13,987 bases of DNA from an uncultured bacterium (GTDB taxonomy: Bacteria > Babelota > Babeliae > Babelales > RVW-14): positions 1 through 13,987 of the forward strand of contig CAVXAT010000019.1 in assembly GCA_963759805.1 (NCBI GenBank). The letters are read 5' to 3'. Shown in pieces: positions 1-12,526 of this stretch; positions within the stretch are counted from its first letter, which is position 1; each line of letters starts with the position of its first letter. Both the position numbers and the translations under genes were made by a program. The notes below the pieces were generated by a model that was given only the letters and a program-made list of their open reading frames with translations, was not told where the DNA came from and did no database searches.

Positions 1-425
1 ATCACGATAATCAGGTATGCCCAGCAATCTTTTCTCCTAATGGCCAACCCATCTTAACTGCTTCAGATGACAACACTGCAAAACTTTGGAATTTGAACGG
101 GCAGCTTATTGCAACATTCACACGATATATATCAAGCAGTCTTTTCCCCGGATGGCCAATTCATCTTAACTGCTTCAAATGACTATACTGCAAAACTTTG
201 GGAAATCCATCCACTTTGGAATTCCACAAAATATCGAACTGGCCAACTTTCTTTGCAAGAGTTAGCAACGATTTTGCTTATCTTGAAACACAAAGATTTT
301 GTTAGGTCAAATTCGAAGATCCAGGCCATTATTCATGGCGTTCTTAATCAAATCGATGGACCTGTGGATGTGCCTAAGAGCAAAGACACATCAAAAACTT
401 TTTTGTATGGTTTTTGAATTCTTAA
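1..425 (+). pseudogene. 3' part of WD40-repeat paralog 1 (5' truncated by window; frameshifted)
   Basis: Two WD40 units (H..V..A.FSP.G..ILTAS.D.TAKLW) followed by the family C-terminal domain (WEIHPLWNSTKYRTGQLSLQELATILLILK). Frameshifts occur near 120 and near 370. The family ending HIKNFFVWFLNS* (TAA 423-425) lies in a different frame from ORF 109..417. Confidence 0.75.
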
Positions 426-766
426 ACGGAAAGACTAATGTGGAAAACCAACATGGCTTAATACCCAAAAAATGCAGCCCGGCGACCAGGTTCTGTTCTC
501 GCCCAGGTGGAACCAGGTGTTTCAAGATCTGGTGTTGAAGTTGGCTGCTTAAAACAACAAATAATTTAGCATTTAAGTTTCACATAGAAACGTACCCAAT
601 TCAAATATCACCCAATCTGTTTCAGCCTGAAATCTTAATCTATTTTTAATCTATTTTTTTGATTTTTTGAGGGAGCGGTTGCGCAACCTGTTTTTTATTG
701 TTAAAATTGAAAATAATAAGAATTAAATAAAGTTTTTTATTGCAAATGTGAGTACAGGTTATATTT

Positions 767-772
767 AGGAGG
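767..772 (+). promoter_or_regulatory. Shine-Dalgarno site for WD40 paralog 2
   Basis: AGGAGG 7 nt upstream of ATG at 780. Confidence 0.7.
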
Positions 773-779
773 TTATATC

Positions 780-2111
780 ATGAAAAAGAGTTTATTTTTA
801 ATACCTTTGGCGACGCTGTTTTTTCAGGTACCATCATATGTTTTTTGTGCAATGGCGCCGGAAGAAACAAGTCGTAATTGGTCCTAACCTTACATCAAAT
901 ATGTTTCAATAATGCCAGTAACCATATTCTACTATTACACCCCAGAACAACTCCTTGAATCACCAAAAAGGAAAAAGCCCTGCCGCAAGAAATTGCATAT
1001 GAAATTTCTAAAACTTTAATATCAATAAATTCTGCCTTTTTCTTTCCCAAAATCGATGGTTATCCAAAAAAATCATGACAGTTTGGGATTTCATCACATT
1101 ACAATATTCCACCATGATGATTTGTAAATTCAGCAGTCTTTTCCCCGGATGGCCAATTCATTTTAACTGCTTCAAAGATCATACTGCAAAACTTTGGAAT
1201 TTGAACGGAGAGCCGATTGCAACATTCCATCACTGATTTTAGGTAAACTCAGCAGTCTTTTCCCCCGATGGCCAATTCATCTTAACTGCTTCATGGACCA
1301 TACTGCAAAACTTTGGAATTTGAACGGAGGAGAGCCGATTGCAACATTCCAGCACGATTTTGGGGTAAACTCAGCAGTCTTTTCCCCCGATGGCCAATCC
1401 ATTTTAACTGCTTCATAGGACCACACTGCAAAACTTTGGAATTTGAACGGAGGAGAGCCGATTGCAACATTCCATCACGATTTTGGGGTAAAATCAGCAG
1501 TCTTTTCCCCCGATGGCCAGTTCATTTTAACTGCTTCACATGACAAAACTGCAAAACTTTGGAATTTGAACGGAGGAGAGCCGATTGCAACATTCCAGCA
1601 CGATTTTGGGGTAAACTCAGCAGTCTTTTCCCCCGATGGCCAGTCCATCTTAACAGCTTCAGTTGACATTGCAAAACTTTGTAATTTGAACGGAGAGCCA
1701 ATTACAATATTCCAGCACGATTTTTGGGTAACCTCAGCAGTCTTTTCCCATGATGGCCAATTCATTTTAACTGCTTTAGGTAACGGTACTGCAATACTTT
1801 GGGAAATTCATCCGCTTAGGAATTCTCCAAAATATCGCAATGGTCAACTTTCTTTGCAAGAGCTAACAACAATTTTGCTTATTTTGAAATACAAAGACTT
1901 TGTTAAGTCAAATCCGGAGGCCCAGGCCATTATTCATGAAGTTCTTGATCAAATAGATGGAAATGTACCTGACGAACAAAGATACATCAAAAACTTTTTT
2001 GAATGGTTTTTAATCGATGGGAATGTACCTGACGAACAAAGATACATCACGAACAAATGGAATGTACCTGGATACATCAAAAAATTTTTTGAATGGTTTT
2101 TAAATTATTAA
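780..2111 (+). pseudogene. WD40-repeat paralog 2, about 6 repeats, multiple frameshifts (pseudogene or sequencing indels)
   Basis: ATG at 780 begins a signal-like MKKSLFLIPLATLFFQVPSYVFCA. Out-of-frame pieces (ICFNNA, ALPQEIAYEISK, FFPKIDGYPK) match the N-terminus of 2127..3455. WD40 units start near 1112, 1230, 1353, 1477, 1600 and 1717. Only 1443..2111 is a long continuous frame. Confidence 0.8.
1952..2105 (+). repeat. Local tandem duplication/triplication of the C-terminal tail (about 60-bp unit)
   Basis: GATGGRAATGTACCTGACGAACAAAGATACATCA occurs twice 60 bp apart, plus a rearranged third piece. The peptide IDGNVPDEQRYI...FFEWFL is repeated. Confidence 0.85.
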
Positions 2112-2126
2112 AAATGAAAGACTAAC

Positions 2127-3455
2127 ATGAAAAAACATCTTATGCCCAAAAATTTATTTGTGATTGCCCTACTCCTAATCACATTTTTTAAAAACGTAAG
2201 TGGAGCCAAACCCTTGACTGAAATATGTTTAAAGAATGCCTATGAATATATTCTCGACTGTCCTCCGAAACAACTTATTGAATTAGCCAGAGGCGAAAAG
2301 GCCCTACCCCAAGAAATTGCATACGAAATTTCTAAAGCCTTAATAACAAAAAATTCTACTCTTTTCTTTCCTAAAGTTGATGGTTATCCAAAAATAAAAC
2401 AAATATCCCAACATAATAATGAAGTAAAATCAGCAGTCTTTTCCCCCGATGGCCAGTTCATCTTAACTGCTTCATATGACAACACTGCAAAACTTTGGAA
2501 TTTGAACGGAGGAGAGCCGATTACAATATTCCAGCACGGTCATTTGGTATTCTCAGCAGTCTTTTCCCCGGATGGCCAGTTCATCTTAACAGCTCCAGCT
2601 GACCATACTGCAAAACTTTGGAATTTGAACGGAGGAGAGCCGATTGCAACATTCCAGCACGGTGATTGGGTACTCTCAGCAGTCTTTTCCCCCGATGGCC
2701 AATCCATCTTAACAGCTTCAACTGACCGTACTGCAAAACTTTGGAATTTGAACGGAGGAGAGCCGATTACAACATTCCAGCACGATTTTGAGGTAAAATC
2801 AGCAGTCTTTTCCCCCGATGGCCAGTTCATCTTAACAGCTTCACTTGACCATACTGCAAAACTTTGGAATTTGAACGGAGGAGAGCCGATTGCAACATTC
2901 CAGCACGATTTTGGGGTAAAATCAGCAGTCTTTTCCCCCGATGGCCAATCCATTTTAACTGCTTCATATGACCACACTGCAAAACTTTGGAATTTGAACG
3001 GAGGAGAGCCGATTGCAACATTCCAGCACGATTTTGGGGTAAAATCAGCAGTCTTTTCCCCCGATGGCCAGTTCATCTTAACAGCTTCACTTGACCATAC
3101 TGCAAAACTTTGGAATTTGAACGGAGGAGAGCCGATTGCAACATTCCAGCACGATTTTGGGGTAAACTCAGCAGTCTTTTCCCCCGATGGCCAATCCATT
3201 TTAACTGCTTCATATGACTATAATGCAAAACTTTGGGAAATTCATCCGCTTTGGAATTCCACAAAATATCGCAATGGTCAACTTTCTTTGCAAGAGCTAA
3301 CAACAATTTTACTTATTTTGAAATACAAAGACTTCGTTAAGTCAAATCCGAAGGTTCAGGCCATTATTCATGGCGTTCTTAATCAAATCGATGGGCCTGT
3401 GCCTGCAAATCAAAGGCATATCAAAAACTTTTTTGAATGGTTTTTAAATTCTTAA
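2127..3455 (+). CDS. Secreted WD40-repeat protein (7 repeats), paralog 3
   Basis: 442 aa with an N-terminal signal-like segment. Seven 41-aa WD40 repeats have a 123-bp period (His codons at 2412, 2535, 2658, 2781, 2904, 3027, 3150), followed by the helical family C-terminus. Confidence 0.93.
   Translation: MKKHLMPKNLFVIALLLITFFKNVSGAKPLTEICLKNAYEYILDCPPKQLIELARGEKALPQEIAYEISKALITKNSTLFFPKVDGYPKIKQISQHNNEVKSAVFSPDGQFILTASYDNTAKLWNLNGGEPITIFQHGHLVFSAVFSPDGQFILTAPADHTAKLWNLNGGEPIATFQHGDWVLSAVFSPDGQSILTASTDRTAKLWNLNGGEPITTFQHDFEVKSAVFSPDGQFILTASLDHTAKLWNLNGGEPIATFQHDFGVKSAVFSPDGQSILTASYDHTAKLWNLNGGEPIATFQHDFGVKSAVFSPDGQFILTASLDHTAKLWNLNGGEPIATFQHDFGVNSAVFSPDGQSILTASYDYNAKLWEIHPLWNSTKYRNGQLSLQELTTILLILKYKDFVKSNPKVQAIIHGVLNQIDGPVPANQRHIKNFFEWFLNS
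2412..3240 (+). repeat. Seven near-identical 123-bp WD40 coding repeats
   Basis: TCAGCAGTCTTTTCCCCSGATGGCCA and GCAAAACTTTGG recur every 123 bp. Confidence 0.95.
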
Positions 3456-3470
3456 AAATGAAAGACTAAC

Positions 3471-4172
3471 ATGAAAAAACTTCTTATGCTCAAAAATTTA
3501 TTTGTGATTGCCCTACTCCTAATCACATTTTTCAAAAACGTAAGTGGAGCCAAACCCTTGACTGAAATATGTTTAAAGAATGCCTATGAATATATTCTCA
3601 ACTGTCCTCCGAAACAACTTATTGAATTAGCCAGAGGTGAAAAAGCCCTACCCCAAGAAATTGCATACGAAATTTCTAAAGCCTTAATAACAAAAAATTC
3701 TACTCTTTTCTTTCCTAAAGTTGATGGTTATCCAAAAATAAAACAAATATCCCAACATAATAATGAAGTAAAATCAGCAGTCTTTTCCCCCGATGGCCAG
3801 TTCATCTTAACTGCTTGCGATGACAATACTGCAAAGCTTTGGAATTTGAACAGAGGGCCGATTGCAACATTCCAGCACGGTAGTTGGGTAAACTCAGCAG
3901 TCTTTTCCCCCGATGGCCAGTTCATCTTAACTGCTTCAGATGACGGTACTGCAAAACTTTGGGAAATTCATCCGCTTTGGAATTCTCCAAAATATCGCAA
4001 TGGCCAACTTTCTTTGCAAGAGTTGGCAACAATTTTACTTATTTTGAAGCACAAAGATTTTGTTAAGTCAGATCCGGAGGCCCAGGCCACTATTTATGGC
4101 GTTCTTAATCAAATCGATGGGAATGTGCCTGCAAATCAAAGGCATATCAAAAACTTCTTTGCAAGTTTTTAA
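3471..4172 (+). CDS. Secreted WD40-repeat protein (2 repeats), paralog 4
   Basis: 233 aa. The first ~115 aa are almost identical to 2127..3455 and the upstream linker (TAAAAATGAAAGACTAAC) is identical. It has only two WD40 units and the same C-terminal domain. Confidence 0.9.
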   Translation: MKKLLMLKNLFVIALLLITFFKNVSGAKPLTEICLKNAYEYILNCPPKQLIELARGEKALPQEIAYEISKALITKNSTLFFPKVDGYPKIKQISQHNNEVKSAVFSPDGQFILTACDDNTAKLWNLNRGPIATFQHGSWVNSAVFSPDGQFILTASDDGTAKLWEIHPLWNSPKYRNGQLSLQELATILLILKHKDFVKSDPEAQATIYGVLNQIDGNVPANQRHIKNFFASF

Positions 4173-5973: not shown

Positions 5974-7380
5974 ATGGGACAAACAAACAAAAACTTCTCT
6001 CCATTTATACCAGCTTCCATCGCATTTATATTTGGAATTTACGCACAATCGTATGAACTTTTTAACCCGACAATTTTATTAATAATTCTTGGGGTTTTTA
6101 CCCCAATTGTGTTTGTCAGCGCAATGAAGCGCACAACGGCTTTTAAGCCGTTGTATTGCGCGAAATCCCGCCATAGCCGCATTCATCCCCAGCTTGATAA
6201 ACATGGGGTTTTCTGGCGACGGCGGATCAAAAATTTTTACTCGAATTTTACTCAGGCTTTTACTTGTATCATTTTTTTTACACTTGGTAGTTTTGCACTA
6301 ACATGGCAGAAAAATCAGTATTCAACTATGATACAAGAATTTGATGGCAAAAAACTTGATCTGATCGCCAAAGTTACAAATAAAATACTATTACCAGCAG
6401 ATAAGAGCGGCGACCGGCATGGTTGCTGGAAAGAGATTCTTGAAATAACAGTATGGCAAGCGAAAGATGTGACACCATTCTGCGAAATTAAAAAACCAAA
6501 CTTGCCCGCTCGTGGTGAGTGTTTTTTGCAGGCCGCACCCTTCGATACGCCTCACAACGCTCGGCACTCAGGGCGAGCGGCCAAAAAAAATGTATCGAAC
6601 CATGCGGGCATAAAATTTGCTTCGAATTGTATAGCCCCCTGCTATAAAAAAACAAACTTCAATCTGCAATGCTACTCCACTTCAAACAGTTGCGTGCAAG
6701 TTGACAATATAATTGAAATACAAGACGTCAAAATTAAAGTTCCACAGGATCAATCACTTTCTCAAAACAGTTCATATAAAAATTATCTGATTAAAGAGAA
6801 TTTGTTGGCTTCCGTATTTTTTTACAAAAACAAAAACATAAAAATTTTACGCACCCCAAAATTCAGCTTCAAAAGATTGATCTGGAATATACAAGTAAAC
6901 ACATATCAAAGGCTTCAACAAAAAATGCACCCTACCGTTTTTACTTACTTTTCACTAATGTTTTTAGGCAACACACATCACAAAAACATTGATTCGATGC
7001 GTAACACATTCAATTACTGGGGGCTATCACATTATCTGGCCCGCTCAGGATTACACATTGTTCTGTTTATTCTTATCTGGACGATATTTTTACAACTTAT
7101 TCCCATCTCAATCAGATTTAAACGCAGCTTACTAATTATTATTTGCATAACATATAAATTATTTTCTTGGACAAGCCTTCCATTCACCAGAGCCTTTTAT
7201 GCATTTATTCTGACTGAAATCGGAAAGATTTTTAATCTTCAAACGAACTTTTTGCACCTGCTCTGCATAGTATGCATGACCATTCTTTTATTTAATCCAA
7301 TGCAATTATTTTTTCTTGATTTCCAACTAACATTTGCACTGACGTTTGCGCTTGCATTCGTTTCAAAATATATGCACTAG
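5974..7380 (+). CDS. comEC: ComEC/Rec2-family competence channel protein (no C-terminal metallo-beta-lactamase domain visible)
   Basis: N-terminal TMs (FIFGI), a soluble region, then F..WGLSHYLARSGLHI, RA, NPMQLFFLDFQLTF competence-domain motifs. Contains two in-frame palindromic insertions. Confidence 0.88.
   Translation: MGQTNKNFSPFIPASIAFIFGIYAQSYELFNPTILLIILGVFTPIVFVSAMKRTTAFKPLYCAKSRHSRIHPQLDKHGVFWRRRIKNFYSNFTQAFTCIIFFTLGSFALTWQKNQYSTMIQEFDGKKLDLIAKVTNKILLPADKSGDRHGCWKEILEITVWQAKDVTPFCEIKKPNLPARGECFLQAAPFDTPHNARHSGRAAKKNVSNHAGIKFASNCIAPCYKKTNFNLQCYSTSNSCVQVDNIIEIQDVKIKVPQDQSLSQNSSYKNYLIKENLLASVFFYKNKNIKILRTPKFSFKRLIWNIQVNTYQRLQQKMHPTVFTYFSLMFLGNTHHKNIDSMRNTFNYWGLSHYLARSGLHIVLFILIWTIFLQLIPISIRFKRSLLIIICITYKLFSWTSLPFTRAFYAFILTEIGKIFNLQTNFLHLLCIVCMTILLFNPMQLFFLDFQLTFALTFALAFVSKYMH
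6133..6225. repeat. In-frame palindromic insertions in comEC (site 1)
   Basis: Perfect hairpin ACAACGGCTT-TT-AAGCCGTTGT (6133-6154), and CCGCCATAGCC...GGCGACGGCGG (6168-6225) with inner CCCCA...TGGGG hairpin. Confidence 0.8.
6503..6610. repeat. In-frame nested palindromic insertion in comEC (site 2)
   Basis: Outer TGCCCGC-TCGTGGTGAGTG...TGTATCGAACCAT-GCGGGCA. Inner oppositely oriented GGCCGC-ACCCTTCGATAC...CACTCAGGGCGA-GCGGCC (6531-6582). Confidence 0.85.
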
Positions 7381-7469: not shown

Positions 7470-8384
7470 GTGAACAATAAAAATAATGATAAAAATTTAG
7501 ACACCCAAGTAAAAAATTACATAAATTTTTTAAAAAAACAGCCCAAGGGCTTTGTGTACAAAGATAATAGACCGCTTCTGGAACCCGGCGCGCCCGTCTA
7601 CGCCAAGGCTACGACGGATGGTTCGACAAGCTCACCACGAGCGCGCCTACTTACTCCCGCTCATCCTGAGTGTTTTGCGAAGCTTGCTGAGCAAAATGTA
7701 TCGAAGGATCGTCCTGCCGTGCCGGCCATAGCTCCCCAAGAGCGACGGCTGGAGCCTGTCGAAGGATGCGAGTGCCAGACGAGATCTAATACAGAATCCG
7801 GATCAAAATCACGCCAAGATATGCTTGACGAAATAAAGTGCAAATTCAAAAACTGTACCCAATGCCCACTTGCCCAACAAGGCCGATCGCAGGTTGTTTT
7901 TGGTGTGGGAAATCCGTTTACAAAAATTATGTTTGTTGGCGAGGGACCGGGCAGAGACGAGGATGCCCAAGGAAAGCCGTTTGTCGGTCGAGCCGGCCAA
8001 TTGCTCACAAAAATAATTGAGGCTATGAAACTCAAGCGTGATGAAGTTTACATCAGTAACGTTGTAAAATGCCGCCCGCCAAACAACAGAACTCCACTGC
8101 CAAACGAGAGCGATATCTGCAAAAAATTAATTCTTTTTAAAGAAATCGAAATCATCAAGCCACAAATCATTTGTGCACTCGGAGCAACTGCCACACAGGG
8201 TCTGCTTGGATATGACATAAGCATTTCAAAATCGCGTGGAATTTTCTTTAAATTTAATGATACTTTGGTTCTGCCAACTTACCACCCAGCCTATCTTCTG
8301 CGCAATCCGGATGCAAAAAAGATTGTATGGGAGGACATGAAAAAGATTATTGGGAAATTAAACGAAATTAACACTACAATTTAA
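7470..8384 (+). CDS. udg: Uracil-DNA glycosylase, family 4 (4Fe-4S)
   Basis: CTQCPL, VGEGPG..ED..GKPFVGRAG, NVVKCRPPNNRTP..ESDIC, TYHPAYLLRNP motifs. GTG start. The N-terminal linker carries about 60 aa derived from palindromic elements. Confidence 0.95.
   Translation: MNNKNNDKNLDTQVKNYINFLKKQPKGFVYKDNRPLLEPGAPVYAKATTDGSTSSPRARLLTPAHPECFAKLAEQNVSKDRPAVPAIAPQERRLEPVEGCECQTRSNTESGSKSRQDMLDEIKCKFKNCTQCPLAQQGRSQVVFGVGNPFTKIMFVGEGPGRDEDAQGKPFVGRAGQLLTKIIEAMKLKRDEVYISNVVKCRPPNNRTPLPNESDICKKLILFKEIEIIKPQIICALGATATQGLLGYDISISKSRGIFFKFNDTLVLPTYHPAYLLRNPDAKKIVWEDMKKIIGKLNEINTTI
7588..7773. repeat. Cluster of in-frame palindromic elements in udg
   Basis: Contains CCGTCTACGCCAAGGCTACGACGG (7594-7617), TGGTTCGACAAGCTCACCACGAGCG, CGCTCATCCTGAGTG...TGTATCGAAGGA, CCTGCCGTGCCGGCCATAGC...GCGACGGCTGGA (7713-7753) and AGCCTGTCGAAGGA. 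All match the intergenic elements. Confidence 0.85.
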
Positions 8385-8447: not shown

Positions 8448-9134
8448 GGAGACGTAGCTTCCAGCCTTCGCCCTTCCCACTCCGCTCAGGTAGCTCCGAG
8501 GGACAGGTCGTGGCTACGGCGGACAGGCAGTTGGTTATTGAAAACTTTTGGAGACGTAGCTTCCAGCCTTCGCCCTTCCCACTCCGCTCAGGTAGCTCCG
8601 AGGGACAGGTCGTGGCTACGGCGGACAGGCAGTTGGTTATTGAAAACTTTTGGAGACGTAGCTTCCAGCCTTCGCCCTACGTGGCTACGGCGGACAGGCA
8701 GTTGGTTATTGAAAACTTTTGGAGACGTAGCTTCCAGCCTTCGCCCTACGTGGCTACGGCGGACAGGCAGTTGGTTATTGAAAACTTTTGGAGACGTAGC
8801 TTCCAGCCTTCGCCCTACGTGGCTACGGCGGACAGGCAGTTGGTTATTGAAAACTTTTGGAGACGTAGCTTCCAGCCTTCGCCCTACGTGGCTACGGCGG
8901 ACAGGCAGTTGGTTATTGAAAACTTTTGGAGACGTAGCTTCCAGCCTTCGCCCTACGTGGCTACGGCGGACAGGCAGTTGGTTATTGAAAACTTTTGGAG
9001 ACGTAGCTTCCAGCCTTCGCCCTACGTGGCTACGGCGGACAGGCAGTTGGTTATTGAAAACTTTTGGAGACGTAGCTTCCAGCCTTCGCCCTACGTGGCT
9101 ACGGCGGACAGGCAGTTGGTTATTGAAAACTTTT
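8448..9134 (+). repeat. Tandem array of 9 interrupted tRNA-Val 5' fragments (2 x 102 bp + 7 x 69 bp)
   Basis: Unit = GGAGACGTAGCT [TCCAGCCTTCGCCCTACGTGGCTACGGCGGACAGG] CAGTTGGTTA TTGAAAACTTTT. Units start at 8448, 8550, 8652, 8721, 8790, 8859, 8928, 8997 and 9066. The first two have an extra 33-bp nested insert. Confidence 0.97.
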
Positions 9135-9208
9135 GGAGACGTAGCTCAGTTGGTTAGAGCACCCGCTTCACATGCGGGGGGTCGGAGGTTCGAGTCCTCT
9201 CGTCTCTA
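9135..9208 (+). tRNA. tRNA-Val(CAC), CCA not encoded
   Basis: Acceptor GGAGACG/CGTCTCT + A. D-arm GCTC-AGTTGGTTA-GAGC. Anticodon arm CCCGC-TT CAC AT-GCGGG (CAC 9169-9171). T-arm GGAGG-TTCGAGT-CCTCT. Confidence 0.96.
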
Positions 9209-9237
9209 TTGATTAAAATGCTAAATCAAACACATTA

Positions 9238-9310
9238 GTCGGAGGCCTGTGCTCCATAGCCACAAGCAACGCGAGGGCGACGGAGCATTCGAGTCCTCTC
9301 GTCTCTACCA
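9238..9310 (+). pseudogene. Duplicated tRNA-Val 3' fragment with CCA, interrupted in the T-arm by a 42-bp palindromic element
   Basis: GTCGGAGG (9238-9245) + CCTGTGCTCCATAGCCAC...GGGCGACGGAGCA (9246-9287) + TTCGAGTCCTCTCGTCTCTACCA (9288-9310). Confidence 0.92.
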
Positions 9311-10800: not shown

Positions 10801-10993
10801 ACAGGAACATCATAGCAAAACCTCGCAGCTTTATACAGTTTTTGCCATTTTCCATACACTTGGCTAAAGCCGGATAAAAAAATATTATTTAAATACTTGT
10901 TTTCACTATATTAAATTTACTATTATTAATTTAGTATAGGAGTTTTAAAAAGTAGGTCGTAAAGTATTGGTGAGAAAAGGAGAAAGGGGAGAC

Positions 10994-12526
10994 GTGAATA
11001 GACAAGCAAGAGGCATACTCATTGTGTCGATCTGCACAGTGTTAGTTGCAAGCTCAAGTCTTTTCGGAGATAAACTCGAAGACTTTAAGTTGATTGAGGG
11101 AAAAGATCAAAATGCTAAAAAATTAGTACGCGGTGGCGGCGGTGGTCATGGCGGTGGGGGTGGCCATGGCGGCGGCGGTCACAGTTTTAGTGGTGGTCAT
11201 GGTGGGGGCAGAAGCTTTTCAGGTGGCCATGGAACAAGGTCTATGAAGTCTGGTAGCCGATCCTCAAAATCATCTGTACGATCTGGCGGTAAATCGTCAA
11301 CCAGATCAGTGAAATCAAGATCAAAAACCTCAAAATCATCTGTAAAAAGCCACGGAGCAAAGGGCAAAGGTACAAGGGGCGTATCAAAGGGTAAAGGCGG
11401 AAAAGGCGGTAAGGGTGGCAAGGGAATTGGTAAAGGCAAAGGCGGTAAGGGTGGCAAGGGAATTGGTAAAGGCAAAGGCGGTAAGGGTGGCAAGGGAATT
11501 GGTAAAGGCAAAGGCGGTAAAGGCGGCGGAAAAGGCGGCAACCGCGCAAATAAAATTGCACATCACCACGGGCACGGAGGCCACGGCGGAGGGCACCATG
11601 GACATCATGGGTATCACCATGGACACCATTGTCATGGTGGGTACTGGGGCGGCGGTTGGGGTTGCGCAGGCTGGTGGGGCGGTGCATATTTTGGATTTGG
11701 TGCATTGTATCCCTTCTGGTATCCAATGGATCCATTCTTCTGGGGGCCTTACTGGGTAACTCCTTGGCCATGGACTGCAGGCCTAGGTCTTCAATATTAC
11801 CCTGGTCCAGCATGGTGGTACATGAATGCATACAACTGTTGGGTATATCCATTTGCCGGACTTGGTTATGGTTTGATGTTTGCAAACCTCGGTTATTACT
11901 GGTATCCAAGAGCTGGCGTAAGCATTTATCTTGAAGTTCCAGAAGAAGAAGATGCGCCTAGCACGTATGTATACGTTGAAAACGAAAAGGATGAAGACCT
12001 GTACTATGCTTTATACCGCAAGGTCGATCGTAGCATTGACGATACAGAAGCCTCATACCTTATCAAGGTAAGTGCACCACACGTAATATCTACAAGAAAA
12101 GTAGTTAAGGTCTATCTCCCTGAAGATGTTTCAAAAGACAAAGAGTATGTGGTTGTTGCTCGTCGAAATGAATCTGAGTTAAGGAACAGCATGGATGAAG
12201 AGGGTAATAACATTAATCCAGATATCATTCAACAAATAAAGGAAGAAGATAAAGATCTTGCAAAAAGACATACTATGGAAATTGACGAACCATCTGAAAA
12301 AGAAGTTCAAGAGCTTAATAAAACTAAAGAGTCTGCTCGAGCAGATGAAGAAAAACTTGCAACTGCAGTTGAGAACATTGACAAGCAAGACAAGTCTGAA
12401 ATTCCAACAGTAGAACAACTTGAAAAGGAAACAGAACAGGCAAGAGAAGAAGGGACTGTTCATAAGAAACACAAAACAACACATGAAAGACCTGTAAAAA
12501 TGATTGAAGAAGTCGAAGTAGAATAA
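10994..12526 (+). CDS. Secreted low-complexity Gly/His/Ser/Lys-rich protein with aromatic-rich and acidic domains
   Basis: Long ORF (track start 10967). In-frame GTG at 10994 follows AAGGGGAG and precedes a signal-like hydrophobic stretch. No family recognised. Confidence 0.85.
   Translation: MNRQARGILIVSICTVLVASSSLFGDKLEDFKLIEGKDQNAKKLVRGGGGGHGGGGGHGGGGHSFSGGHGGGRSFSGGHGTRSMKSGSRSSKSSVRSGGKSSTRSVKSRSKTSKSSVKSHGAKGKGTRGVSKGKGGKGGKGGKGIGKGKGGKGGKGIGKGKGGKGGKGIGKGKGGKGGGKGGNRANKIAHHHGHGGHGGGHHGHHGYHHGHHCHGGYWGGGWGCAGWWGGAYFGFGALYPFWYPMDPFFWGPYWVTPWPWTAGLGLQYYPGPAWWYMNAYNCWVYPFAGLGYGLMFANLGYYWYPRAGVSIYLEVPEEEDAPSTYVYVENEKDEDLYYALYRKVDRSIDDTEASYLIKVSAPHVISTRKVVKVYLPEDVSKDKEYVVVARRNESELRNSMDEEGNNINPDIIQQIKEEDKDLAKRHTMEIDEPSEKEVQELNKTKESARADEEKLATAVENIDKQDKSEIPTVEQLEKETEQAREEGTVHKKHKTTHERPVKMIEEVEVE
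11405..11512 (+). repeat. 3 x 36-bp perfect tandem coding repeat (GGKGGKGIGKGK)
   Basis: GGCGGTAAGGGTGGCAAGGGAATTGGTAAAGGCAAA at 11405, 11441 and 11477. Confidence 0.95.

Follow-up and report, generated by a model that had tools for sequence, protein, structure and literature searches.

How does an intact tRNA gene come to stand between broken pieces of itself? In the window (the whole stretch of DNA analyzed, 13,987 nt, which is contig C19 of the 1.5-Mb, 88.7% complete genome designated G000), a gene for tRNA-Val(CAC) lies on the forward strand at 9135–9208 (ARAGORN; Rfam RF00005, 68.8 bits), flanked on one side by a uracil-DNA glycosylase gene and on the other by an unknown ORF and then ksgA. 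The discriminator A9208 is followed directly by TTG, that is, no CCA is encoded. Downstream of a 29-nt AT-rich spacer (9209–9237), the 3′ end of the gene recurs on the forward strand in two parts. The first (9238–9245, 8 nt) copies tRNA positions 46–53 and is identical to 9181–9188, and the second (9288–9310) copies positions 54–76, with positions 54–73 repeated exactly at 9288–9307, CCA at 9308–9310 and the conserved downstream gene adjoining. The two 3′ ends match at 28/28 nt overall, the CCA being their sole difference. Separating the two parts at 53^54 is a 42-nt CYTG-tagged hairpin element (9246–9287, forward strand), whose fold consists of CCTG and a 6-bp stem (−7.8 kcal/mol with DNA parameters); it shows no target duplication, points its tag toward the intact tRNA and sits within a 31-nt fragment, not a full-length gene.

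Upstream, at 8448–9122 on the forward strand, are nine 5′ stubs of the same gene (positions 1–22), each split at 12^13 by a hairpin of the same family in reverse orientation and assembled as two 102-nt and seven 69-nt units, the first two stubs carrying a nested second hairpin. The last of these D-stem elements (35 nt, 9078–9112, reverse strand) has its tag toward the intact tRNA. Its reverse complement and the insert at 9246–9287 share the consensus CYTG-N4-CCRYAGC..GCGA(A/C)GG, in an alignment that used three of five rows, two with wrong coordinates having been left out. The sequence-only reading had described an intact gene lacking CCA, a split 3′ copy with CCA behind it, and a 42-bp T-arm insert inverted relative to that of the array; the first two were found as described and the third was confirmed at 53^54 by the common consensus and the orientations. 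Read along the CYTG strand, the hairpin at the tRNA sites recorded in G000 follows a G, again without target duplication, and this rule makes D-stem and T-arm hairpins point in opposite directions; because the tags face the intact gene, the hairpins on its two sides are inverted.

Public reads were searched for the same arrangement. Run X3 gave a single contig (depth 2.6) with 0 differences over 9135–9250, including an identical 29-nt spacer, followed by a different hairpin of the CYTG family; it extends just 13 nt past the spacer/stub junction and stops short of the CCA. Run X4 gave one contig identical to 8643–8741. An assembly artefact is disfavoured by the single, low-depth X3 contig, and this one contig also suggests that the hairpin at the tRNA-Val(CAC) site turns over between strains.

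The lack of CCA in the intact gene, which had been singled out as notable, proved ordinary. CCA is encoded in 28 of the 42 tRNA genes of G000 and absent from 14, and the CCA-adding enzyme proposed as a check has a counterpart in a CCA-adding-type nucleotidyltransferase gene (top NCBIfam match "multifunctional CCA", 153 bits, below the curated cut-off of 451); the missing CCA was therefore dropped as a special trait. Mature tRNA-Val(CAC) would be made with the proximal end, to which the host enzyme would add CCA. A search for a sigma-70 promoter gave no match. Since tRNA-Val(UAC) is also encoded in G000, the locus, as a dead remnant, would be of little consequence to the cell.

A use for the downstream copy at the RNA level, in which the acceptor 5′ strand of a read-through precursor would pair with the distal CCA end, so that this end offers a second 3′ terminus or the stretch between is a removable insert, appears very improbable. 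The folding prediction for 9135–9310 does put distal pairing 4.8 kcal/mol ahead (P 0.996), but the fold model ignores tertiary and co-transcriptional folding, and distal pairing leaves the T arm distorted and brings in 102 additional nt. An Rfam scan of the locus found only the tRNA and no intron family, the copy is absent from three relatives (G001–G003), and the hairpin interior differs in the sister contig of X3. Distal pairing in a modeled read-through precursor could nevertheless hinder maturation.

The orthologous site was compared within a phylum set of 261 genomes, the 260 besides G000 all belonging to the same order. Two syntenic genomes of the same genus (G002 and G003) have a plain tRNA-Val with CCA, the same gene order and no 3′ copy, together with single-copy equivalents of the upstream 5′ stubs. 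G001 has a plain CCA-less tRNA followed by other genes and no 3′ fragment in its 14.7-kb contig. Given the shared gene order and encoded CCA of G002 and G003, the native end is likely the downstream copy in the window, and the working end would be its replacement; on this sequence comparison, the spare copy is likely the displaced, dead original tRNA end.

In G150, of the same family, and in G004 the layout is complete: a small GIY-YIG gene separates the intact tRNA, which has a left hairpin at its position 74, from a split 3′ copy. The encoded proteins belong to a family of about 80 aa (PF01541) with 324 matches in 158 of the 261 genomes; the 90 best-scoring loci were fetched, and all cassette counts rest on these. 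For 62 of the 90, a tRNA or tmRNA lies upstream at a distance of at most 400 bp, a placement that applies to about 1% of G000. Full cassettes of about 0.3–0.4 kb, on nine isoacceptors, were recognized at 13 of these 62 tRNA-adjacent genes (11 by script; L113 and L128 by eye), the remaining 49 having no duplicated tRNA end. Each cassette ends in the gene end, 3–10 nt of the same tRNA, a CYTG-type hairpin and the tRNA 3′ end, the gene filling the place of the window's spacer. Two more cassettes, both at tRNA-Gly and one of them in tandem, were found on metagenome contigs.

At the locus in the window the nuclease gene is absent, and the 29-nt spacer stands where full cassettes have the left hairpin, leader and GIY-YIG gene. 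No significant match was found between this spacer and the 90 cassette interiors (72/100 shuffles were equally good), and no left hairpin is detectable in it. The cassette layout without its nuclease gene points to a gene-less scar of a selfish GIY-YIG/hairpin element lodged in the tRNA gene, a reading that is probably correct, with real room for error.

The geometry of the cassettes bears on how such a scar could form. The right hairpin lies before position 54 in six cassettes, before 58 in four, before 59 in two and before 60 in one, and at every insertion point 3–10 nt of host tRNA remain on the tag side, with the stop codon mostly a few nt from the joint. The tag-side stub is at most 10 nt in 15/15 T-arm cases (the 13 cassettes and two cases in G000). 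Among D-stem stubs, surveyed at 20 loci with a pattern that demanded 7 nt so that the upper limit alone is informative, no more than 15 nt lie beyond the tag in 19/21, and the two that are longer run up to a further hairpin. In every T-arm and D-stem stub case examined, the tag points toward the intact gene. For these counts the binomial p values are < 1e-9, with kin that are not independent. In a protein tree of about 80 residues, from which L112 was left out as a truncated ORF, 11/12 cassettes share the T-loop insertion point of their nearest neighbour that carries a cassette, mostly at a different tRNA; L166 is without a close cassette, and here too kin are not independent.

The hairpin itself is widespread. 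A CYTG tag with a stem-loop gave 68 motif matches in G000 against a shuffle mean of 7.2, and a hairpin begins at position 74 in 19 of the 42 tRNAs, a count that excludes one further flagged tRNA whose hit was the neighbouring gene. Hairpins also split 5′ stubs upstream of tRNA-Met and tRNA-Arg(TCG) in G000, and a complete tandem tRNA copy riddled with hairpins occurs in G016. Downstream of tRNA-Arg(TCT) in G000 are 3′ copies in three 149-nt units, split at 53^54 with 8 nt kept, whose spacer resembles the cassette leader (0/100 shuffles as good).

A partial duplication of the gene by replication slippage or unequal recombination might have come first, with the hairpin surviving only in the spare copy and deletions trimming that copy; the nuclease genes would be bystanders that share tRNA neighbourhoods. 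The riddled tandem copy of G016 and the genome-wide spread of the hairpin, at many G^ sites and at position 74 of so many tRNAs, speak for such a course. It is improbable nonetheless: the spacer at 9209–9237 copies neither flank, tag-side stubs stay within a narrow length limit, the gene ends within a few nt of the stub in most full cassettes, and the insertion point tracks the nuclease clade. The spacer also divides an earlier proposal, that of repeated insertion into the tRNA with regeneration by local duplication. Insertion with regeneration resembles what is found in the cassettes of relatives; plain local duplication does not fit a spacer that copies neither flank.

The other earlier proposal was a collapsed attachment-site remnant hit later by the hairpin: a recombinase island would have entered the T-arm region, the tRNA would have been restored without CCA, the island would have shrunk to 29 nt (attL/attR) and the native end, by then dispensable, would have been struck at a favoured site. 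The topology is that of tRNA islands (PMC4383910), G000 has six large serine recombinase matches, one of them directly behind tRNA-Arg(CCT), and at C10:45280, in what appears to be the opposite end of a serine-recombinase island, lies a displaced tRNA-Arg(CCT) 3′ fragment with hairpins stacked in front of it at the point where the window's copy is split; 53^54 is also struck in distant orphan fragments. With such islands and a hairpin-bearing tRNA-Arg(CCT) end, G000 offers a real route to an att scar that is hit afterwards, and to that extent the proposal has a true example. For the tRNA-Val(CAC) locus it is weakened, and we consider it unlikely. Neither G002 nor G003 has an island at this site, let alone the integrase-bearing island between the tRNA and an uninterrupted 3′ fragment that would have marked an ordinary attR scar, and the single tyrosine recombinase match in G000 is on a different contig. 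In addition, insertions before 54, 58, 59 and 60 all keep 3–10 nt, so that the junction shifts along with the hairpin; an integrase crossover would offer no explanation for such a shift.

If the locus is the scar of a selfish element, the following course can be proposed. A CYTG hairpin would be placed after a G in the T arm of the native gene, which is thereby disabled. Much as SsnA acts at its own hairpin, a small GIY-YIG nuclease supplied in trans would then likely nick single-stranded DNA near this one, and a new joint would arise 3–10 nt from the tag. Repair from a second copy (the sister chromosome, an incoming allele or a cassette donor) would place a new 3′ end lacking CCA, together with donor flank, upstream, the native end with its CCA staying downstream. 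The nuclease gene would have been lost, or never brought to this site, and a mirror event at the D stem, followed by tandem amplification, would have produced the upstream stubs. Transposition with a staggered cut would duplicate 54–73, yet it leaves target-specific bases inside the right hairpin unexplained. That hairpin insertion can precede repair is suggested by the tRNA-Ala(GGC) gene of G194, whose split copy is the only match for that tRNA in a genome that is 91% complete in two contigs. This gene (L076; G194:C1:209180–209300) is full-length, with its D stem split by a 31-nt hairpin.

Several further hairpin sites were recorded. In tRNA-Arg(TCT) of G000 (C14:13644–13720; also L082, L083 and L087) the inserted hairpin starts with CCA and the old CTC sits behind the hairpin tag, G001–G003 having CTC after the discriminator; the encoded CCA of this tRNA thus appears, from sequence, to be supplied by the hairpin element. 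Other hairpin copies start with CTC and displace a CCA. A collapsed copy full of hairpins lies upstream of tRNA-Arg(TCG) in G000 (C9:12716–12960). In L098 and L099 (Planctomycetaceae, Acidobacteriota) a solo hairpin occupies 53^54 with no GIY-YIG gene; one host is a degenerate tRNA-Thr of full length, the other an orphan half of a tRNA-Pro, and neither locus has an intact tRNA. Two metagenome contigs, L103 and L105, have common upstream DNA and different tRNA-Ala 3′ cores between two hairpins, L103 running on into a GIY-YIG gene; the insert at 9246–9287 has the same outer stem as both.

Strict T-arm patterns, which cover insertions at 53^54 only, matched 2/261 and 3/261 phylum genomes, seven GTDB loci and seven metagenome loci, and no viral loci. 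A loose D-stem pattern matched 62/261 genomes, mostly by chance, with a real hairpin in 14 genomes picked by eye. One query for the GIY-YIG family in viral contigs found none, and in the PDB the protein matched nothing but UPF0213 proteins (best E 1.3e-4) and, weakly, SLX1.

G000 itself has two genes of the nuclease family behind a tRNA and hairpin, one frameshifted (C5, tRNA-Ser) and one cut by a contig end (tRNA-Asp). The C5 gene, the best candidate nuclease in this genome, groups with the 57^58 cassettes (support 0.865), and the window's scar is at 53^54. Its closest relative is L103 (258/300 aligned nt), which has an upstream 53^54 hairpin with the window's outer stem and an end of its own that is a 57^58-type remnant. 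Three kinds of small GIY-YIG genes were seen in G000 (C1:132943, C1:266306, C9:54564, C5:3782 and C18:49169), flanked by an SRM-like hairpin family, a second family and the tRNA-linked CYTG family.

A wider reading of the same sequences, taken as one and short of an even chance, is that an 80-aa GIY-YIG nuclease outside the Ssn clade and a CYTG hairpin form a minimal mobile element of an undescribed class, which would hop between tRNA genes with neither integrase nor transposase. The hairpin would be written into a clade-specific T-loop position and the tRNA rebuilt upstream; gene-less units and D-stem arrays would be non-autonomous products, and the hairpin would still be exchanged between strains. 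If this were true, a large family of "hypothetical" 80-aa GIY-YIG genes (158/261 genomes) would gain a testable role and substrate, and common tRNA fragments that island finders skip or would label att scars would be explained. The scar would predict hairpin, strand, distance from the tag and T-loop position for each clade, and the Ssn-type toolbox could be extended.

Elsewhere in the window, 1–4172 holds tandem paralogous genes of 123-nt repeats, some frameshifted and differing in repeat number, which we take from their motif to be WD40-like. GC-rich palindromic stretches lie in frame in a membrane-protein ORF (5974–7380), presumably ComEC-like by its motif, and in the N-terminal part of the uracil-DNA glycosylase gene (7470–7800). 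A 519-aa ORF at 10967–12526 carries Gly/Ser/Lys/His low-complexity repeats, and its orthologue in G003 has other repeat units.

The locus was compared with five known systems. Like the tRNA islands found by Islander, it has a restored tRNA and, in matching orientation, a displaced 3′ fragment (PMC4383910); those islands span 2–200 kb, whereas the interval here is 29 nt, with no integrase, and the fragment is split by a hairpin (PMC4383910). REP, REPIN and BIME sequences (PMC3733652) and Rickettsia palindromic elements are likewise hairpins of 20–60 nt, tagged with a tetranucleotide, nested and clustered, with no target duplication. The tag here is CYTG, not GTAG or CGTC, and CCTG does not occur in the REP/RAYT text (PMC3733652). 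The CYTG hairpin is linked to GIY-YIG genes at fixed tRNA-gene sites and not to a Y1 transposase; none of the five PF01797 matches in G000 is flanked on both sides by a CYTG hairpin (200-nt flanks, by eye).

Comparable to the putative nuclease is SsnA, a single-domain GIY-YIG enzyme that binds its hairpin on one single strand, depends on the C that follows the stem and makes its cut a few bases upstream (PMC11893778; Chenal et al., 2025). The Ssn system with its NTS/SRM sequences shares with the cassettes a small single-domain GIY-YIG gene between hairpins and a conserved C after the stem (PMC11893778), and in both the hairpins are dispersed genome-wide; a gene between hairpins is seen in relatives, not in the window. 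The degenerate SRM motif fits neither insert on either strand, and the cassette protein is 35% identical (E 1.5e-4) to a G000 GIY-YIG gene with SRM-like flanks. The main text on Ssn nowhere mentions tRNA, and mobility is proposed there, not demonstrated (PMC11893778). The defining features tested for islands, SRM and REP/RAYT are lacking here, and the locus was therefore assigned to none of these. SegB of phages T4 and T6 is a free-standing GIY-YIG gene among tRNA genes whose product recognizes a T-arm motif and drives segmental amplification of tRNA-containing DNA; it differs in being phage-borne and a double-strand cutter, and the abstracts describe no hairpin element or split spare copy (PMC2330249; PMC13096335). 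In a search of the openly accessible literature, no description of a tRNA-lodged GIY-YIG/hairpin cassette was found.

A close parallel is with the mobile ORFs of fungal mitochondria, known from Allomyces atp6 and Glomus atp6, atp9, cox2 and nad3 (PMC3630166). There, too, a replacement 3′ end and an endonuclease ORF are accompanied by a displaced native end, and the host gene remains intact (PMC3630166). The cassettes differ in their bacterial tRNA targets, an 80-aa single-domain nuclease, flanking hairpins, a native copy split by a hairpin and switches between isoacceptors; the window differs further in that the ORF is absent, the layout being complete in 13 of the 62 relatives' loci (90 best-scoring fetched). 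For a mobile ORF the inserted end is expected to be of foreign origin; the two copies in the window are 28/28 identical except for the CCA, and those of L113 have one mismatch. As part of the reading of the locus as a gene-less scar, and by analogy, the element would probably, at somewhat better than even chances, have worked like these fungal mobile ORFs, or like a homing element of the Seg type, with hairpin recognition of the Ssn type.
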